IMG/VR virus record: IMGVR_UViG_3300035696_000004 | Location: 128,001 to 192,000 of that record | Source of the DNA: a virus | Lineage: Duplodnaviria > Caudoviricetes | Strand: one strand, 5' to 3' | DNA: 64,000 nt | Shown here: piece by piece, positions 11,951-56,858 of the stretch | Layout: each line of letters begins with the position of its first letter | Position numbering within the stretch: position 1 is the stretch's first letter | Position numbers and translations under genes: made by a program | The notes under the pieces: model-generated | Seen by the model: only the letters and a program-made list of their open reading frames with translations | The model's database searches: none | What the model was told of the DNA's origin: nothing

Positions 11951-13681
11951 ATGGCTAAAATCCCAAAAGATGAGATTGCAGGTTACGAGTGCCGATTCGC
12001 TGTACACATCCCTCCACCTCCGGGGGAACACAACGACTACCACTTGATCAAAGAAGTCATTCACCTCAAGGATGGCTCTCGCGTCCCAAATATCCGCATC
12101 AAAGAGAATTTCAAACGTTCCTTCTACGTCACCAAGAAAGGGTTTCAAAACCACAAGAGCAAGAAGGAATGGGAAGACATCGATAAGCTCAACAAGTTCG
12201 AGTGCACGCAAAGTGAACTCCAATTTGCTGTCGCTAAAGCCCTGGGTGCAACAGGCAAGATGGACAAATGGGTACCGACCCCGATGCAAGTCGGTAAGAA
12301 AGGATCACGTAGCCCATATCTCTACGGTAGTGACATTCTCTCCACGGCGATCATCAAACGACAATACGCGGAAGCCTTCCCGACACTCAACACACCCTAT
12401 TCGGTAGCCTGTTTCGATACGGAAACCGATATGGAGAATGGCACCGGCGAAATTATCATGGCGACGCTCTCTTTTGGGAGTAAAGTCGTTACGGCTGTTC
12501 GGCGTGACTTTCTCAATGGTGTCGCGAATGCAGAAGAACGTGCTCGCGAGATGTTTCAACGTTATCTCGGCAATATCACGGATAGCGATGGCAATGTTAC
12601 AAACCTCGTCGAGAGTCGAAAGATCGATTGGGAACTCAAGATCGTCGACACAGAGATCGAGATCATCACGACGTGCTTTAAACGAGCACACGAGTGGAAG
12701 CCGGACTTTGTAGCTATCTTCAATATCGACTTCGATGTCCCGAAGATGCTCGATGCCTGCAAACGTGCCGGTGTAGATCCCAAAGATATCTTCTGCGATC
12801 CTTGTATACCGAAGGCCTATCGGTTCTTCAATTACGTTCAGGGACCGCGCCAAAAGAAGACAGCCAAAGGGGACATCACTCCGCTCAAACCCCATGAGCA
12901 GTGGCATACGGTCTTTTGTCCGGCGAGTTTCTACTTTATTGACGCGATGTGCGTCTATAAAAAGATCCGGAACGCTGAGCAGGAAGAGCCCTCGTACAGT
13001 TTGGATGCGTTGCTCAACAAGCATCTTGGGTTGCGTAAGCTGAACTTTACGGTGGCAGATGGTTTTGTTAAGGCCGACTGGCATATCTTCATGCAGACGC
13101 AATATAAGCTCGAATACGTCATTTACAACGTGTTCGACTGCGTCTCGATGGAGTTGCTCGATGAGAAGACAAAGGACTTGTCGATCGCGATGCCGATGCA
13201 GTCGGGAAGTTCTGACTTCTGCAACTTCAAGTCACAGCCTCGCCGTACGGTTGACAACTTGCATTTCGTCTGCCTGATGCGAGACAAGGTCATTGGGTCG
13301 ACGTCTGATGAGATGTCGGACGGATTCGATGGGTTGACTTTGGGCCTTGACGATTGGATCGTTACCCTGCCGGCACACTTGGTGATGGATAATGGTCTTT
13401 GTATCATCGAGGAATATCCGGCGATGCGCACCAATTGCCGGGCGCACATAGGTGATTTGGACGTTTCGGCAAGTTATCCAAATGGCGAGTGTGTCTTCAA
13501 TGTTTCGAAAGAGACGACCCATACAGAACTCTGTTCTATTGAGGGTGTGGACGAGGAACTCCAGCGATTGGAAGGTGTCAATCTCAGTGCAGGGCCAACG
13601 AATGCACTTGAAATTTGTCACCATCTAATGGGGATGCCCACGTTGGATGAGCTCCTCGAATCATTTGAAGATGCTGCCTAA
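11951..13681 (+). CDS. Split family-B DNA polymerase, exonuclease plus motif-A subunit (phiKZ gp82-like)
   Basis: 576 aa; Exo I CFDTETD, Exo II FNIDFD, Exo III YNVFD, PolB motif A DLDVSASYP. Confidence 0.85.
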   Translation: MAKIPKDEIAGYECRFAVHIPPPPGEHNDYHLIKEVIHLKDGSRVPNIRIKENFKRSFYVTKKGFQNHKSKKEWEDIDKLNKFECTQSELQFAVAKALGATGKMDKWVPTPMQVGKKGSRSPYLYGSDILSTAIIKRQYAEAFPTLNTPYSVACFDTETDMENGTGEIIMATLSFGSKVVTAVRRDFLNGVANAEERAREMFQRYLGNITDSDGNVTNLVESRKIDWELKIVDTEIEIITTCFKRAHEWKPDFVAIFNIDFDVPKMLDACKRAGVDPKDIFCDPCIPKAYRFFNYVQGPRQKKTAKGDITPLKPHEQWHTVFCPASFYFIDAMCVYKKIRNAEQEEPSYSLDALLNKHLGLRKLNFTVADGFVKADWHIFMQTQYKLEYVIYNVFDCVSMELLDEKTKDLSIAMPMQSGSSDFCNFKSQPRRTVDNLHFVCLMRDKVIGSTSDEMSDGFDGLTLGLDDWIVTLPAHLVMDNGLCIIEEYPAMRTNCRAHIGDLDVSASYPNGECVFNVSKETTHTELCSIEGVDEELQRLEGVNLSAGPTNALEICHHLMGMPTLDELLESFEDAA

Positions 13682-13691
13682 GGTGACATAT

Positions 13692-14069
13692 ATGGAAGAC
13701 CCTTACAGACTTTGGACAATTCAAATGGGTAGTTGGCGGGTAGCGAGGGATAGAGGGATCAAGTTTCTCGATATCACGGCAAAATCCGGCATTGCGCTGT
13801 TTGCTCCTGATTTCTCATTAGTCATGGGGTACAAGAACGGTTCTGTTAGTGAGGAGGAATACACTCGGCACTATCTAGACAAGATGATGAGGAGTCAGAG
13901 AAGCGCTCCTAATTACTGGAATAACCTGCAACGTTATCACGACATTGCGTTCGCGTGTTACTGTCCACCTGATGTCTTTTGTCATCGGCATTTGTTTAGA
14001 GATTTAGCAAGTGAACATTTGATCAAATTAGGTCACTCTGTTGAATTGATGGGTGAGTTACAAAAATAA
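13692..14069 (+). CDS. DUF488-like protein
   Basis: ATG 13692 after AAGGTG; FAPDF...EEEYTRHY and CYCPPDVFCHR motifs. Confidence 0.6.
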   Translation: MEDPYRLWTIQMGSWRVARDRGIKFLDITAKSGIALFAPDFSLVMGYKNGSVSEEEYTRHYLDKMMRSQRSAPNYWNNLQRYHDIAFACYCPPDVFCHRHLFRDLASEHLIKLGHSVELMGELQK

Positions 14070-14098: not shown

Positions 14099-14126
14099 CC
14101 CCCTGAGAGCCTAGGCTCTCAGGGGG
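14099..14126. terminator. Bidirectional stem-loop between convergent operons
   Basis: CCCCCTGAGAGC-ctag-GCTCTCAGGGGG, 12-bp stem; A-tract upstream gives a U-tail on the minus strand. Confidence 0.8.
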
Positions 14127-14135
14127 TGTATGACG

Positions 14136-14306
14136 TCAGTGCAGCTTTTGTAGCGCGCATCGGCGCGCATTGTTGATCAGGAGGGTACGTTCCAGACCCG
14201 GCAGGGTAGGTAGGAGCGTTTGTTCGTAGGCACGGAGATAGTCGGCTAGGGCTTCACCGACACGGCGGTCACGGAACTTTACGGAGGTACGATCAGTAGG
14301 TCTCAT
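14136..14306 (-). CDS. Small hypothetical protein (56 aa) absent from the ORF track
   Basis: AAGGAG 5 nt before ATG 14306; MRPTDRTSVKFRDRRVGEALADYLRAYEQTLLPTLPGLERTLLINNARRCALQKLH; ends just before the terminator. Confidence 0.7.
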   Translation of the reverse strand: MRPTDRTSVKFRDRRVGEALADYLRAYEQTLLPTLPGLERTLLINNARRCALQKLH

Positions 14307-14371: not shown

Positions 14372-15079
14372 TCAGAACCCCATTGACATCATGAGGTCTA
14401 TGATTGTCCGAGTACCCGTGCGACCCAGATTCGGGAGCTTGAGCAGCGCTTCTTCTTTCACCACCATCAAGTCCAGCAGGTTGTTGATTCCTGCTGCGAT
14501 GAGGGTATTTTTCACCCGTTGTTGCAACGGCAGCCGTTCGACAGGTACATGGGCCAGCAAGCCGACAGGGATCGCACGACCCTGCACTTGACGCAAGGTG
14601 CGTTTCGTTTCATCGTACTCGATGAAACCGGACGAGTAATACGGGGCTTCGATCGTAGACGAACCCGTCAGGGTGTCCAAAACACGTTCCAAAGCCTCTT
14701 GAGTCGGGTAGAAGTACCGGACCCGTTTATCTTCGGCAGGCCCCAAAACCATGGCGGCATTTGTGTCGTCCTTGGCCGACGGGTCGATCTGACCTGCGTT
14801 TACGACCTTGCTCAGGTCCGACGCACTGATGATGCGTTTCAGATCTTCGAGGGGGATGTGGGTTTCGCTGGCCGCGATCCCATCCACATCGGACTGGGAG
14901 AGGACGTACAAGAACGGGAACACGCTCTCGTCCATATAGGTCAGCAGATGCATACCGCATTGCTTTTCGAGCTCTTCAATACCCGCTGCGTTTTTCACGT
15001 AGTAGGTGTTTTCGAAGACCTTGACACACGCGTCACCTGCCAAGATTTTGAGCAGGGGGGAATTGTTAGTTTTAGCCAT
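14372..15079 (-). CDS. Protein with C-terminal RNA polymerase alpha-CTD-like domain
   Basis: C-terminal PVERLPLQQRVKNTLIAAGINNLLDL...LLKLPNLGRTG aligns by eye with RpoA CTD ([26 protein letters not shown]...LLKTPNLGKKS). Start ATG 15079 after AAAGGA. Confidence 0.8.
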   Translation of the reverse strand: MAKTNNSPLLKILAGDACVKVFENTYYVKNAAGIEELEKQCGMHLLTYMDESVFPFLYVLSQSDVDGIAASETHIPLEDLKRIISASDLSKVVNAGQIDPSAKDDTNAAMVLGPAEDKRVRYFYPTQEALERVLDTLTGSSTIEAPYYSSGFIEYDETKRTLRQVQGRAIPVGLLAHVPVERLPLQQRVKNTLIAAGINNLLDLMVVKEEALLKLPNLGRTGTRTIIDLMMSMGF

Positions 15080-15092
15080 GGTGTTTCCTTTG

Positions 15093-15575: not shown

Positions 15576-15601
15576 CACCCGGGGACCGAAGTCCCCGGGT
15601 G
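15576..15601. terminator. Intra-operon stem-loop
   Basis: CACCCGGGGAC-cgaa-GTCCCCGGGTG; UUCG loop on the minus strand. Confidence 0.65.
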
Positions 15602-16042: not shown

Positions 16043-16531
16043 TCAGTTGAAATGGTCGTGGGCTTCTTTCAGACCACATCCCATGGTCGCGCGGTAAAAT
16101 TTCACCGCTTCGATCTTTTTACCTTGTGCGATGAGCTCTTTGCACTGGCGGTCGAGGTCGTCGACACTGATGGTGCTCGCAGGTAGCATCTGCTTACGCA
16201 GTTCATCAAGCTCACGGCGATAGCTGTTGATCACCGTGCTGAGGAGGCTCTCGTATGCCATCTTTTCTTCCATGGTCGGAGGATTCGATGCGAAGGGGAG
16301 TTGTTCGACCTCCTTTACCGTTTCTTGAAGAATCTTGACCAGAGAGTTCGGACTGTCGGTCAGATCGTACGGTCCCGGGCTCACGTGCTTCTTGACGAGG
16401 GCGCCTAGGACGATCAGAGGTTTGGCTACCTCGAGCTTCTCCTCGAGCTCCATGGTTTTGGCAGCTTGCTTGGCCAACTGCTCCCGGACTTCAGCGAGGG
16501 TGAGGCAGGTTGAAACAAAAGATTCGGACAT
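16043..16531 (-). CDS. Coiled-coil protein with C-terminal ribosomal L7/L12-CTD-like motif
   Basis: KKIEAVKFYRATMGCGLKEAHDHFN resembles bL12 K.I.VIK.VR..TGLGLKEAK; AAGGAG RBS. Confidence 0.7.
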   Translation of the reverse strand: MSESFVSTCLTLAEVREQLAKQAAKTMELEEKLEVAKPLIVLGALVKKHVSPGPYDLTDSPNSLVKILQETVKEVEQLPFASNPPTMEEKMAYESLLSTVINSYRRELDELRKQMLPASTISVDDLDRQCKELIAQGKKIEAVKFYRATMGCGLKEAHDHFN

Positions 16532-18737: not shown

Positions 18738-18923
18738 CTAGCGCCAGTCAGACGGGCGATGTACGACGCCGCCTTCGGGTACGTAATGGACACTACCGGG
18801 TTCGCAGTAGGCGCAGGTGCGATATCCCGGTCCGAGGTATACTTGGCGCGCCGGAACAACAACGCAGCCTGTGAAGAGGCTGCAAAGCAGCCCAATGAGC
18901 ATGATCTTAAGTGCGGTTTTCAT
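18738..18923 (-). CDS. Small predicted lipoprotein
   Basis: MKTALKIMLIGLLCSLFTG|C: positive N-terminus, hydrophobic core, lipobox; GGAG RBS. Confidence 0.7.
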   Translation of the reverse strand: MKTALKIMLIGLLCSLFTGCVVVPARQVYLGPGYRTCAYCEPGSVHYVPEGGVVHRPSDWR

Positions 18924-20670: not shown

Positions 20671-20750
20671 GATTGTTACTCCTTACTATCGTGGTAAAAG
20701 ATCGACATTAGTTGTACGTTCTTGCATGATTACTACCTAAAGTCATGCGA

Positions 20751-20780
20751 GTAATATGTCAGTGAAATAATCTGGAATCG
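20751..20780 (-). promoter_or_regulatory. Phage early-type promoter motif
   Basis: Minus strand CGATTCCAGATTATTTCACTGACATATTAC; matches five other copies and ends in a TATATTAC-like element known from phiKZ early promoters. Confidence 0.7.
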
Positions 20781-20823: not shown

Positions 20824-21282
20824 TTACTCGTAAATCTCGATTTCCATCGGCAAATCATCCAGCCACTTCACCATCAACTCCTTCACACCACCCCATCCGA
20901 GTTTCCCCTTACCGCAGCCAAGTCTAGGAAATGCAATTCGTTCCACTCCCCAGAATCGCCAGAGTCGACAAAACTCCTGAAGACCTTCATCAATGTATTC
21001 CATCTTGGATGGATTTCTCCAATCCACCTTTGTTGGAAAGAGCAAGATACGTTTACCGTTCCACGTTGCCTGACTGGTCACCATGATACAGCGTAACGTT
21101 TCATCGCCATTGCGAAAGTTGTTGATGTTGCAGAAGCCTTTATAGATCGCCTCCAGTCCATCGTACCGCTGTTTAAAAGCGAGGGCGAGTCCGTTACCCA
21201 TAGTCCCGACAATGTTGACAGGTACGACCAATACATCCATGTTGGATTGGAAGATGTCTCCATTGGGGACAAAGGTAATCAT
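20824..21282 (-). CDS. DarG/TARG1-like macrodomain (ADP-ribosyl glycohydrolase)
   Basis: GDIF...VNIVGTMGNGLALAFK, FPTKVDWRNPSKMEYIDEGL, IAFPRLGCGKGKLGW: the full DarG-type macro signature. Confidence 0.85.
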   Translation of the reverse strand: MITFVPNGDIFQSNMDVLVVPVNIVGTMGNGLALAFKQRYDGLEAIYKGFCNINNFRNGDETLRCIMVTSQATWNGKRILLFPTKVDWRNPSKMEYIDEGLQEFCRLWRFWGVERIAFPRLGCGKGKLGWGGVKELMVKWLDDLPMEIEIYE

Positions 21283-31899: not shown

Positions 31900-31965
31900 T
31901 CCTTTATGCGTTTATTAGACAACAAGAAAGACAGGATAGCATGATTGCTACTCAATGTCAATCCA

Positions 31966-31995
31966 GTTATATAGGTTTGAGATATTCTGGAATCG
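31966..31995 (-). promoter_or_regulatory. Phage early-type promoter motif
   Basis: Minus strand CGATTCCAGAATATCTCAAACCTATATAAC. Confidence 0.75.
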
Positions 31996-33107: not shown

Positions 33108-33180
33108 ACGCGTATTCCTTTTTAAAAGATATTAAACAGTACAACACATTACGACATGATTATTATTCAATGTCACCTGA

Positions 33181-33210
33181 GTTATATAGGTTTGAAATAT
33201 TCTAGAATCG
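33181..33210 (-). promoter_or_regulatory. Phage early-type promoter motif
   Basis: Minus strand CGATTCTAGAATATTTCAAACCTATATAAC; near-identical to the chimallin promoter copy. Confidence 0.75.
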
Positions 33211-40962: not shown

Positions 40963-41016
40963 TACAGAACCCTTGTTTAGGTTTTGAATCTTCTTACTGG
41001 ACACAACTACTAATTA

Positions 41017-41045
41017 GTAATATGTGTCTGAAACATTTTGGAGAG
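41017..41045 (-). promoter_or_regulatory. Early-type promoter motif variant upstream of the beta gene
   Basis: Minus strand CTCTCCAAAATGTTTCAGACACATATTAC. Confidence 0.55.
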
Positions 41046-45929: not shown

Positions 45930-45981
45930 ATGTTCCCCCTTTACTCCGTATTAGAAAACACTGGATTACAAGCTCATTTCA

Positions 45982-46010
45982 GTAATATGTGATTGAGATA
46001 TTCTGGACTC
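45982..46010 (-). promoter_or_regulatory. Early-type promoter motif upstream of the gp68-like gene
   Basis: Minus strand GAGTCCAGAATATCTCAATCACATATTAC. Confidence 0.7.
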
Positions 46011-55025: not shown

Positions 55026-55117
55026 TTTTCGTTCCTTGTTTACTGTGGAGAGATTATACTACTTTGTTACTTCGTCGACGAGGAGAAACCAAAATTCTTG
55101 GTTCAGTTCTCAGGTAT

Positions 55118-55147
55118 GTGATATAGGTTTGAAATATTCTAGAATCG
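55118..55147 (-). promoter_or_regulatory. Early-type promoter of chimallin
   Basis: Minus strand CGATTCTAGAATATTTCAAACCTATATCAC. Confidence 0.8.
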
Positions 55148-55277: not shown

Positions 55278-56858
55278 TTATTCACGGTTAAGTTCAGTCA
55301 CCCGAACCTGTGCATCCAGCTCATAACCGAGCACGAGGTGGGTCTTGATCACTTGCCCGGCATCGTCTACGATCTTGAAGTAGACTTCAGCATTACCGAG
55401 CTCAAGACCGATCAGTCCCTTTGCCTGGACGAAGAGCTTGTCGGACCCCGGTATTTCAAATACATGATCAAGAGTCAAGGTCCGGTAGTTTCCGACCGGG
55501 TCTTGAATAAATTCCCCAGAGACTTGGTATCTCGAAACCTCTCCGGTATCCGCCAAGACATCGATAGCTTTCAGCCGGATCGGTTGTTCGAGTGCCATTT
55601 CGTAGGGCTCGCGGATTACCCCAACACTTGCCAGACCAAGAAGGTTCGTCTTCGAGTTGGCTTTGAGCGGTTTGGTCGGAACAACCCCACCAACAGCATT
55701 CATGACATGCTTAACTGGGATAGCGTCCACGAAATGATGCGCAGAGATCTCCTGATAGTACGGGATGAACTCCACGATTTCCGAATCCGTCAGCCGCACA
55801 TACCGCGGCTCAATTAACGCCGGTTTGGATTCGTTGTGCAACACGGGTTCGAACGTGACTCTTCGCGCCGACAGATTGTAGCCCGCGACCACGAGGTTGT
55901 CCTCAGTGGGTAGAGCTTCAAACTTCATCTCGAGATCGCCGGTTTCGAGATTCAGTTCCCCATCCACATAAACATCGACCGTTTTGAATTGACCATCGAT
56001 CAACAGTGCAGAAGGGCGACCGTAATGCAGTTCCAGTGTTTTGAACTCATGGTTCGCACTGAAAACGAACTGACTCGCGGCGAGATCGTCGGTATGGCTG
56101 ATCTTGAAAAACGGACCCGTCTCCTCGTGACCTTTCTTCGAAAGGTAGAGGGTTTTGAGTCTGACTGACGGATCAACTTGATCGCCAACAGATACCGCCC
56201 CAGAATCAATCAGCTCTTGGGTCTGAGAGATCGCGAGGAGATTCACTTTTACGCCGGCTTTCAAGGGCCGGGTCGTTATTGGCTTATCGGAACCCTCGAT
56301 GAATACCACGGATTGCTCGGAGTTAGCCAGGAGGTGACCGTCGTGTTCCGGATTCCAGATAGCGTGCAACTCTTTTGCTGTGACTCGGATATACGATTGA
56401 TGATTGACCCACTTTGCCATATCTGGCCTGTAATCCCGCACCTCATCCCAGGTAGGGTCCAACACCACCTTGTGCTCTTTGGCAACTTCATGCAGCGCAT
56501 CCGACCAGCCGTCGGGGTGTTTGCGGTCCTCAGAGACCACAGCGGGGATAACAACCGGTGCTCCTTCGACCATGGCACGATAGATCAGATAGCACCGCGT
56601 GTCTTTACTGATGGTTTTGTGGAGTGCTTCCATTTCGCCTTCGAACATCCAGTCCGGGATCTTCCCTTCGATCCGACCCAAATGTTTGAGTAGTTCGCTG
56701 AGTGTCCGGCACCCGAGATCGAAAGCGGTCATGATGTTTCGAGCAAGCCCCGAATACATTTCTTCTGTCGGGACCAGCGGAACGAGTTTCAGATTGCTGG
56801 ATTCACACACCAGATGGTCTCCTACGAGGTTGCCGAAGTTGTCGGTGATATTAGTCAT
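55278..56858 (-). CDS. Protein with two tandem major-capsid-protein insertion-domain-like repeats
   Basis: TTRPLKAGVKVNLL...DQVDPSVRLKTLYL...GYNL and PTKPLKANSKTNLL...PIRLKAI...GYEL; both resemble a recalled phiKZ gp120 segment (TTAPLKANVRLDLM...DTIDPAGRLKNLFV...IGFELD). Confidence 0.6.
   Translation of the reverse strand: MTNITDNFGNLVGDHLVCESSNLKLVPLVPTEEMYSGLARNIMTAFDLGCRTLSELLKHLGRIEGKIPDWMFEGEMEALHKTISKDTRCYLIYRAMVEGAPVVIPAVVSEDRKHPDGWSDALHEVAKEHKVVLDPTWDEVRDYRPDMAKWVNHQSYIRVTAKELHAIWNPEHDGHLLANSEQSVVFIEGSDKPITTRPLKAGVKVNLLAISQTQELIDSGAVSVGDQVDPSVRLKTLYLSKKGHEETGPFFKISHTDDLAASQFVFSANHEFKTLELHYGRPSALLIDGQFKTVDVYVDGELNLETGDLEMKFEALPTEDNLVVAGYNLSARRVTFEPVLHNESKPALIEPRYVRLTDSEIVEFIPYYQEISAHHFVDAIPVKHVMNAVGGVVPTKPLKANSKTNLLGLASVGVIREPYEMALEQPIRLKAIDVLADTGEVSRYQVSGEFIQDPVGNYRTLTLDHVFEIPGSDKLFVQAKGLIGLELGNAEVYFKIVDDAGQVIKTHLVLGYELDAQVRVTELNRE

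Follow-up and report, generated by a model that had tools for sequence, protein, structure and literature searches.

Phages are known to act on the C-terminal domain (CTD) of the host RNA polymerase (RNAP) alpha subunit by means of enzymes: T4 Alt/ModA ADP-ribosylate R265, and phiKMV Rac acts by acetylation and cleavage (PMC7552054). The chimalliviral protein described here concerns the same host function, the use of promoters that depend on the alpha-CTD; but whereas Alt/ModA and Rac modify the host domain enzymatically, it has a copy of that domain, and no enzyme fold was detected in its 235 amino acids. Free alpha-CTDs are also found at the C-terminus of phage proteins of 130-240 aa, for instance Goe8_c00050 of Bacillus phage vB_BmeM-Goe8 (QDP42789.1), A0A2P1JY10 of Rhodococcus phage Finch and entries from uncultured phages such as A0A6J5L490. 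As far as they are identified, these phages are not chimalliviruses, and the front domains are unrelated to that of the protein studied here. The Goe8 alpha-CTD is far more faithful, with 12 of 15 RpoA-invariant residues compared to 7 of 15 in the chimalliviral protein. In BFVD and the ESM Atlas there are further phage alpha-CTD entries, among them that of Rhodococcus phage Finch and some sigma-4 fusions; most annotated "phage" alpha-CTD matches in GenBank are host rpoA. A functional study of phage alpha-CTD homologues was not found in our literature search, for which most subscription papers were outside reach. The chimalliviral protein is a new fusion variant within this database-labelled class of phage alpha-CTD fusions.

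The takeover of host transcription by chimalliviruses is poorly defined. Their RNAPs lack alpha, as the first-pass annotation of this DNA had held, and do not stably bind it (PMC13282480). In the genome studied here, the alpha N-terminal domain (PF01193, PF01000) has no match anywhere. Since the phage RNAPs are without an alpha subunit, DNA and host factors are the only targets left for a free alpha-CTD. The window, that is, the whole stretch of 64,000 nucleotides that was analysed, belongs to a virus record of 219,772 bases with a terminal repeat, which is a complete chimallivirus genome. It encodes chimallin (phrog_4795, E 2e-73; PDB chimallins, E 1e-14 to 4e-26) and split beta/beta' RNAP genes (two RNAP subunit PHROGs matched), so that the marks of the Chimalliviridae, chimallin and split beta/beta' RNAP in a genome of >200 kb, are all present. 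The DNA polymerase is nearest to that of Burkholderia phage FLC9 (58%), followed by Ralstonia phages RP12/RP31 (52%), and this kinship hints at a betaproteobacterial host.

The alpha-CTD is encoded at the end of a minus-strand gene of 235 codons (Table 1). A longer start at ATG 15121 would overlap the upstream gene, whose stop lies 13 nt 5' of the alpha-CTD gene; the assembly gene calls give 235 aa. The protein was called identically in independent ENA and JGI assemblies, and the DNA of locus L034 is identical at 708 of 708 bases. With a codon model trained on 13 core genes of the phage, the gene scores 0.20 per codon compared to a median of 0.11, which places it in the top quartile of the phage's genes; the score is alike in both halves of the gene, and the five other frames are all negative. 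These results show that the open reading frame is a real, ameliorated phage gene. Host contamination as its source was ruled out by the flanking phage genes, the phage-like codon use and the lack of an alpha N-terminal domain.

Table 1. Features at and around the alpha-CTD fusion gene and further features of the window (window positions)
Feature	Position	Strand	Basis or remark
Alpha-CTD fusion gene, 235 aa	14372..15079	-	Open reading frame; alpha-CTD behind an orphan N-terminal region
Alpha-CTD domain, residues 177-235 (about E. coli RpoA 254-312), without the 313-329 tail	14375..14551	-	PF03118, PDB sequence and fold matches
N-terminal region, residues 1-172	14564..15079	-	Acidic, net -8; homologue not found
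Shine-Dalgarno-like AAAGGA	15086..15091	-	6 nt 5' of ATG at 15079
Upstream orphan gene, 150 aa	15093..15545	-	Gene call
Downstream orphan gene, 56 aa, basic, last of block	14136..14306	-	Gene call
11-bp GC-rich hairpin, TTCG loop, weak T-tract	15576..15601	-	Between promoter and last three genes
12-bp hairpin, T-run 12 nt downstream	14099..14126	-	Convergent end of block
Phage promoter-like motif heading the orphan block	20748..20779	-	Score 30.5; motif also at chimallin gene
Other sites of the motif	31963..31994; 33178..33209; 41014..41045; 45979..46010; 55115..55146	-	
162-aa orphan	16043..16531	-	L7/L12-CTD-like C-terminal motif, below cut-off
61-aa open reading frame	18738..18923	-	Signal peptide, lipobox-like LFTGC
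Macrodomain gene	20824..21282	-	PF01661
DUF488-N3a gene	13647..14069	+	
526-aa protein gene adjoining chimallin	55278..56858	-	90-residue match to major head protein family, phrog_3231, E 1e-16

The first-pass annotation had reported that the last 59 residues align with the RpoA CTD, and had proposed a profile search and a structure prediction as checks; both agree with it. PF03118 (RNA_pol_A_CTD), the sole Pfam family matched in the protein, covers residues 177-228 with 32.9 bits (E 5.4e-8), above the curated cut-off of 23.8, and the top PDB sequence matches are all RpoA (E 0.002-0.02). A model of the CTD (64 residues, 172-235, built from a five-row alignment; pLDDT 75) ranked RpoA CTDs first. 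With Foldseek, RpoA chains fill the first 20+ rows, and 1lb2 superimposes at an rmsd of 0.7 A over 47 columns, with E for RpoA CTDs only 0.06-0.1. With VIA-align, the top five rows are RpoA CTDs (Z 6.1-7.7; best three 7.7, 7.0 and 6.9), and the best of them has an rmsd of 1.9 over 52 residues, compared to Z 6.0 for the Rad51 N-domain and 4.2 for NusA-AR2. The four-helix helix-hairpin-helix (HhH) fold of the model is thus nearer to the alpha-CTD than to Rad51-N, SAM or NusA-AR, by small Z margins. In the ESM Atlas, the domain matches alpha-CTD clusters with TM 0.82-0.87. At 55 residues, individual E-values and Z margins can be expected to be modest, and they are; profile, sequence and fold nevertheless concur that the domain is an alpha-CTD.

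Compared to the RpoA CTD (RpoA 249-329; PF03118; PDB 1lb2, 3n97, 1z3e), the phage domain has the same fold and core residues, the PNLG hairpin, and R265, N268, N294 and G296. The alignment is ungapped over 256-311 with a constant offset of 77 to E. coli numbering, giving R188=R265, N191=N268, N217=N294, G219=G296, T221=K298 and G222=S299, so that the residues first reported as kept (R265, N268, G296) and as replaced by T/G (K298/S299) are exact. That annotation did not mention C269T, E302T, the loss of the 261 acidic patch or the end of the protein at about residue 312. In contrast to RpoA, the phage protein has no alpha N-terminal domain and is therefore unable to assemble into RNAP; it is instead fused to a 172-aa orphan region, and TIGR02027, the full-RpoA model, gave 28.9 bits, below its cut-off of 227.8. 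Identity to the nearest RpoA CTDs is 36-38%, and it reaches 41% over 56 residues with proteobacterial RpoA. Long branches dominate in a tree of 32 alpha-CTDs, which identified neither donor nor monophyly and did not separate single from several acquisitions among the chimalliviral alpha-CTDs (AU p 0.34).

The N-terminal region makes up 73% of the protein and is not explained by any match. Neither for the whole protein nor for residues 1-172 was a homologue found in a search of 5.8 billion sequences, a HMMER scan of 1.84 billion, viral and metagenome contigs, 36 related genomes or PHROGs. The ESM Atlas gave no fold relative of this region (TM <= 0.33), and a paralogue of the protein was not found in its own genome. 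The region is alpha/beta in a low-confidence model; single-sequence AlphaFold of the whole protein reached a pLDDT of 37, too low for a fold to be read from it. A likeness by eye to the N-termini of two related alpha-CTD proteins, L036 and L037 (see below), failed with a hhalign probability of 0.6%.

The fidelity of the domain was assessed against 25 distinct RpoA CTDs, a panel weighted to Pseudomonadota (the loci best matching the query) from which L068 was left out. Over 255-311, 15 positions are invariant in the 25 RpoAs. The phage domain keeps 7 of them (L262, R265, N268, L270, L281, N294 and G296) and changes 8 (V264Q, C269T, K271I, K298T, S299G, L300T, E302T and L307M). The term "mimic" in the first-pass annotation therefore holds as regards true alpha-CTD homology and overstates the fidelity, since 8 of 15 RpoA-invariant residues are changed. 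The DNA-binding 265 determinant comprises residues 265, 268, 294, 296, 298, 299 and 302 (PMC10853779); it is incomplete in the phage domain, which keeps 4 of 7, including 3 of the 4 residues named as DNA contacts in PMC10853779, and loses K298, S299 and E302. The 287 determinant, used by CRP-type activators (285-289, 315, 317 and 318; PMC10853779), is mostly lost: E286 and L289 are kept, T285K and E288A are changed, and 315-318 lie beyond the stop codon; position 287, variable in RpoA, is E. The 261 determinant, an acidic patch for sigma region 4 (PMC1874639), is lost through D258E, D259R, E261P and K271I. In addition, acids were lost at D259, E261, E273, E288 and E302 and K/R gained at 259, 267, 285 and 301, and the net charge over 256-311 is +2 compared to -2 to +1 in the 25 RpoAs. 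Judging from these residues, the phosphate-binding surface survives, and the activator and sigma surfaces do not. Across six chimalliviral alpha-CTDs only N268, L270, L281, L289, G296 and I303 are invariant; N268 and G296 together with four core residues suggest that the fold and the phosphate-binding hairpin are conserved, and not a protein-docking patch. R265 is missing from 2 of the 6, and in two of the other chimalliviral proteins the alpha-CTDs are acidic (net -2 to -4).

The gene is optional in chimalliviruses. Alpha-CTD proteins are encoded by 3 (2 above cut-off) of the 32 IMG/VR contigs that share its DNA polymerase, and by 1 of 16 near-complete related records; the domain was found in none of 14 cultured relatives. 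Weak PF03118/A4 matches in RSL2 and pEa_SNUABM_54, below cut-off and in 670-723-aa or short frames, were not counted. The three contigs are all chimallin-positive. Their proteins L035 (245 aa, two domains), L036 (241 aa) and L037 (342 aa) likewise carry a diverged alpha-CTD at the C-terminus and keep N268 and G296, but they lie at other genomic positions, and their N-terminal regions show no detectable kinship to that of the protein studied here. The alpha-CTD has thus been placed behind unrelated front domains in different phages. The tandem alpha-CTDs of L035 (L035:943-1680, plus strand) differ from each other, the first being basic and without R265, the second acidic with R265, N268, C269, N294, G296 and S299. 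L036 (L036:1450-2175, minus strand) and L037 (L037:709-1737, plus strand) have in common an N-terminal domain, about 43% identical, and by eye a HigA-like HTH gene lies within about 1 kb 3' of each.

The alpha-CTD gene is the second to last of about 16 small minus-strand genes (20670-14136), most of which have no family and no counterpart at related loci. This orphan block sits between a conserved 538-aa core gene with the macrodomain gene and the DNA polymerase. At its head stands a 32-base promoter-like motif, approximately CTAGAATATTTCA-N4-TATATTAC, which was scored with a matrix trained on five other sites, the site at the block being excluded. Genome-wide, 17 sites were found, all on one strand (6 in the window and 11 more), one of them 5' of chimallin, compared to 0 in shuffles. 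Because chimallin, behind the same motif, is among the first genes transcribed, the motif is probably an early promoter of the virion RNAP. FLC9, which lacks an alpha-CTD, has four sites of the same promoter class; a motif variant is present in FLC9 and G010 and was not found in RP12. The motif lies 5.7 kb upstream of the alpha-CTD gene on the same strand, and the gene is probably expressed early, with the upstream 150-aa gene probably co-transcribed. The GC-rich hairpin that intervenes is possibly an attenuator or RNA-stability element, and the hairpin at the convergent end of the block is a likely terminator.

We propose that the protein is an optional accessory in which a long-diverged alpha-CTD, as a DNA-binding module of weak specificity, takes an orphan domain to host DNA, with a probability of roughly 0.45. 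The alpha-CTD would act as a weakly specific HhH DNA binder, in which the equivalents of R265, N268, N294 and G296 and the extra basic residues would grip the DNA backbone and minor groove, probably leaning to AT-rich DNA, and it would carry the N-terminal domain, an oligomeriser or effector, onto the DNA. The host chromosome would be the likeliest target because the protein is made in the cytoplasm and the phage genome is enclosed. There its effect may be competition with host RNAP for UP-element promoters, or the delivery of the N-terminal activity; at AT-rich upstream elements, competition would follow if the protein oligomerises. The retained part of the 265 determinant, the basic shift, the invariance of N268 and G296, the portability of the domain and the chimallin-type promoter argue for this reading, as does a host-genome-binding regulator reported in chimallivirus RAY (PMC13282480). 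Against it count the acidic alpha-CTDs of the two other chimalliviral proteins, the hairpin between promoter and gene, and the degradation of the host chromosome by several chimalliviruses. Also counted against it, a lone alpha-CTD without the alpha dimer binds DNA poorly. In alanine scans, the residues at K298, S299 and C269 are needed for UP-element function in E. coli, which for C269 and S299 is documented in PMC1874639. Since K298T, S299G and C269T fall on these RpoA-invariant positions, DNA binding may be weak or lost. The competition at UP elements suggested in the first-pass annotation would be compatible with the 4 of 7 residues kept and the net charge of +2. Competition with host RNAP, if it occurs, would make the protein a counterpart of T4 Alt/ModA and phiKMV Rac that needs no enzymatic activity, and would offer a test case for the phage alpha-CTD fusions, a broad class that is labelled in databases but unstudied. 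Its significance is limited by the degenerate domain and by the gene being an orphan from an uncultured phage, and Goe8 is the easier model. A broader version is possible but doubtful, namely that nucleus-forming phages repeatedly capture a host alpha-CTD as a polymerase-free early takeover factor, which would occupy UP elements of strong host promoters (e.g. rRNA) or titrate R265-face factors and so shut host transcription by competition, the alpha-less phage RNAPs being immune.

The same residues may be read otherwise. The domain could be a protein decoy, which we consider unlikely, that binds 265-face host factors (SoxS/MarA-type activators, NusA-AR2) or sequesters an R265-recognising enzyme or sensor, e.g. 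the ADP-ribosyltransferase of a competing phage, with K298T and S299G removing DNA binding. Off DNA, SoxS and MarA contact the 265 determinant, and R265 is a target of ADP-ribosylation by T4 (PMC9638938); a reference given in PMC7171158 indicates that NusA-AR2 binds the UP-element site. The pattern itself, with R265, N268, N294 and G296 kept and the hydroxyl/lysine pair of the hairpin lost, would suit a decoy, as would the weak L7/L12-CTD-like motif in the same block. However, a decoy should track the near-invariant host surface, whereas more than half of the invariant positions differ, the branch is very long, and R265 is not kept throughout the chimalliviral domains. With most of the 287 and 261 patches gone, a decoy for CRP-type activators, part of what was first suggested, or for sigma region 4 is disfavoured; for SoxS/MarA and NusA-AR2, which also use the 265 face, sequence alone cannot separate a decoy from DNA binding.

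Rather improbable, in our view, is a repurposed or decaying alpha-CTD, a structural or protein-interaction domain with the job residing in the N-terminal region and no link to transcription. The low identity to RpoA CTDs, the failure of the tree to single out a donor and the large orphan portion would fit it, and alpha-CTD-like domains do occur in unrelated architectures (sigma-4 fusions, NusA, and a weak match of the relatives to BREX PglW); but the exposed, non-structural R265, N268 and N294 survive about 60% change elsewhere, the frame is intact and the codon use is phage-like. The first-pass annotation had also suggested an accessory supplying alpha-CTD function to the phage RNAP. Such a factor, imported into the phage nucleus, would give UP-element-like contacts or repress early AT-rich promoters, and the alpha-less split RNAPs, the long AT-rich promoter motifs and the varying rifampicin dependence among Ralstonia chimalliviruses (PMC5468394) could be cited for it. 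We judge it very unlikely because the gene is sporadic (29 of 32 related contigs, including 15 of 16 near-complete records, and all 14 cultured relatives lack an alpha-CTD), the same promoter class serves FLC9, which has no alpha-CTD, and RP12, also without one, replicates in rifampicin (PMC5468394). In addition, phage RNAPs form no stable complex with alpha (PMC13282480), and the gene is not among the RNAP genes but in an orphan neighbourhood.

Several minor observations were made in related loci and in the window. The Goe8 alpha-CTD gene is present at both genome ends (L041:1959-2591 and near 156.5 kb), and Goe8 is the most tractable cultured model. Within the orphan block, the 56-aa protein downstream of the alpha-CTD gene is by eye strand-helix-helix, like ribbon-helix-helix regulators, with no Pfam or PDB match, and the 61-aa reading frame may encode a small lipoprotein. 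The 162-aa orphan would be a second host-like fragment in the block, its scores all being below cut-off (PF00542 E 0.015, TIGR00855 E 0.02, PRK06771 E 1e-4). The block is flanked by the macrodomain and DUF488-N3a genes, and the macrodomain could bear on ADP-ribosylation conflicts, R265 being a known target.
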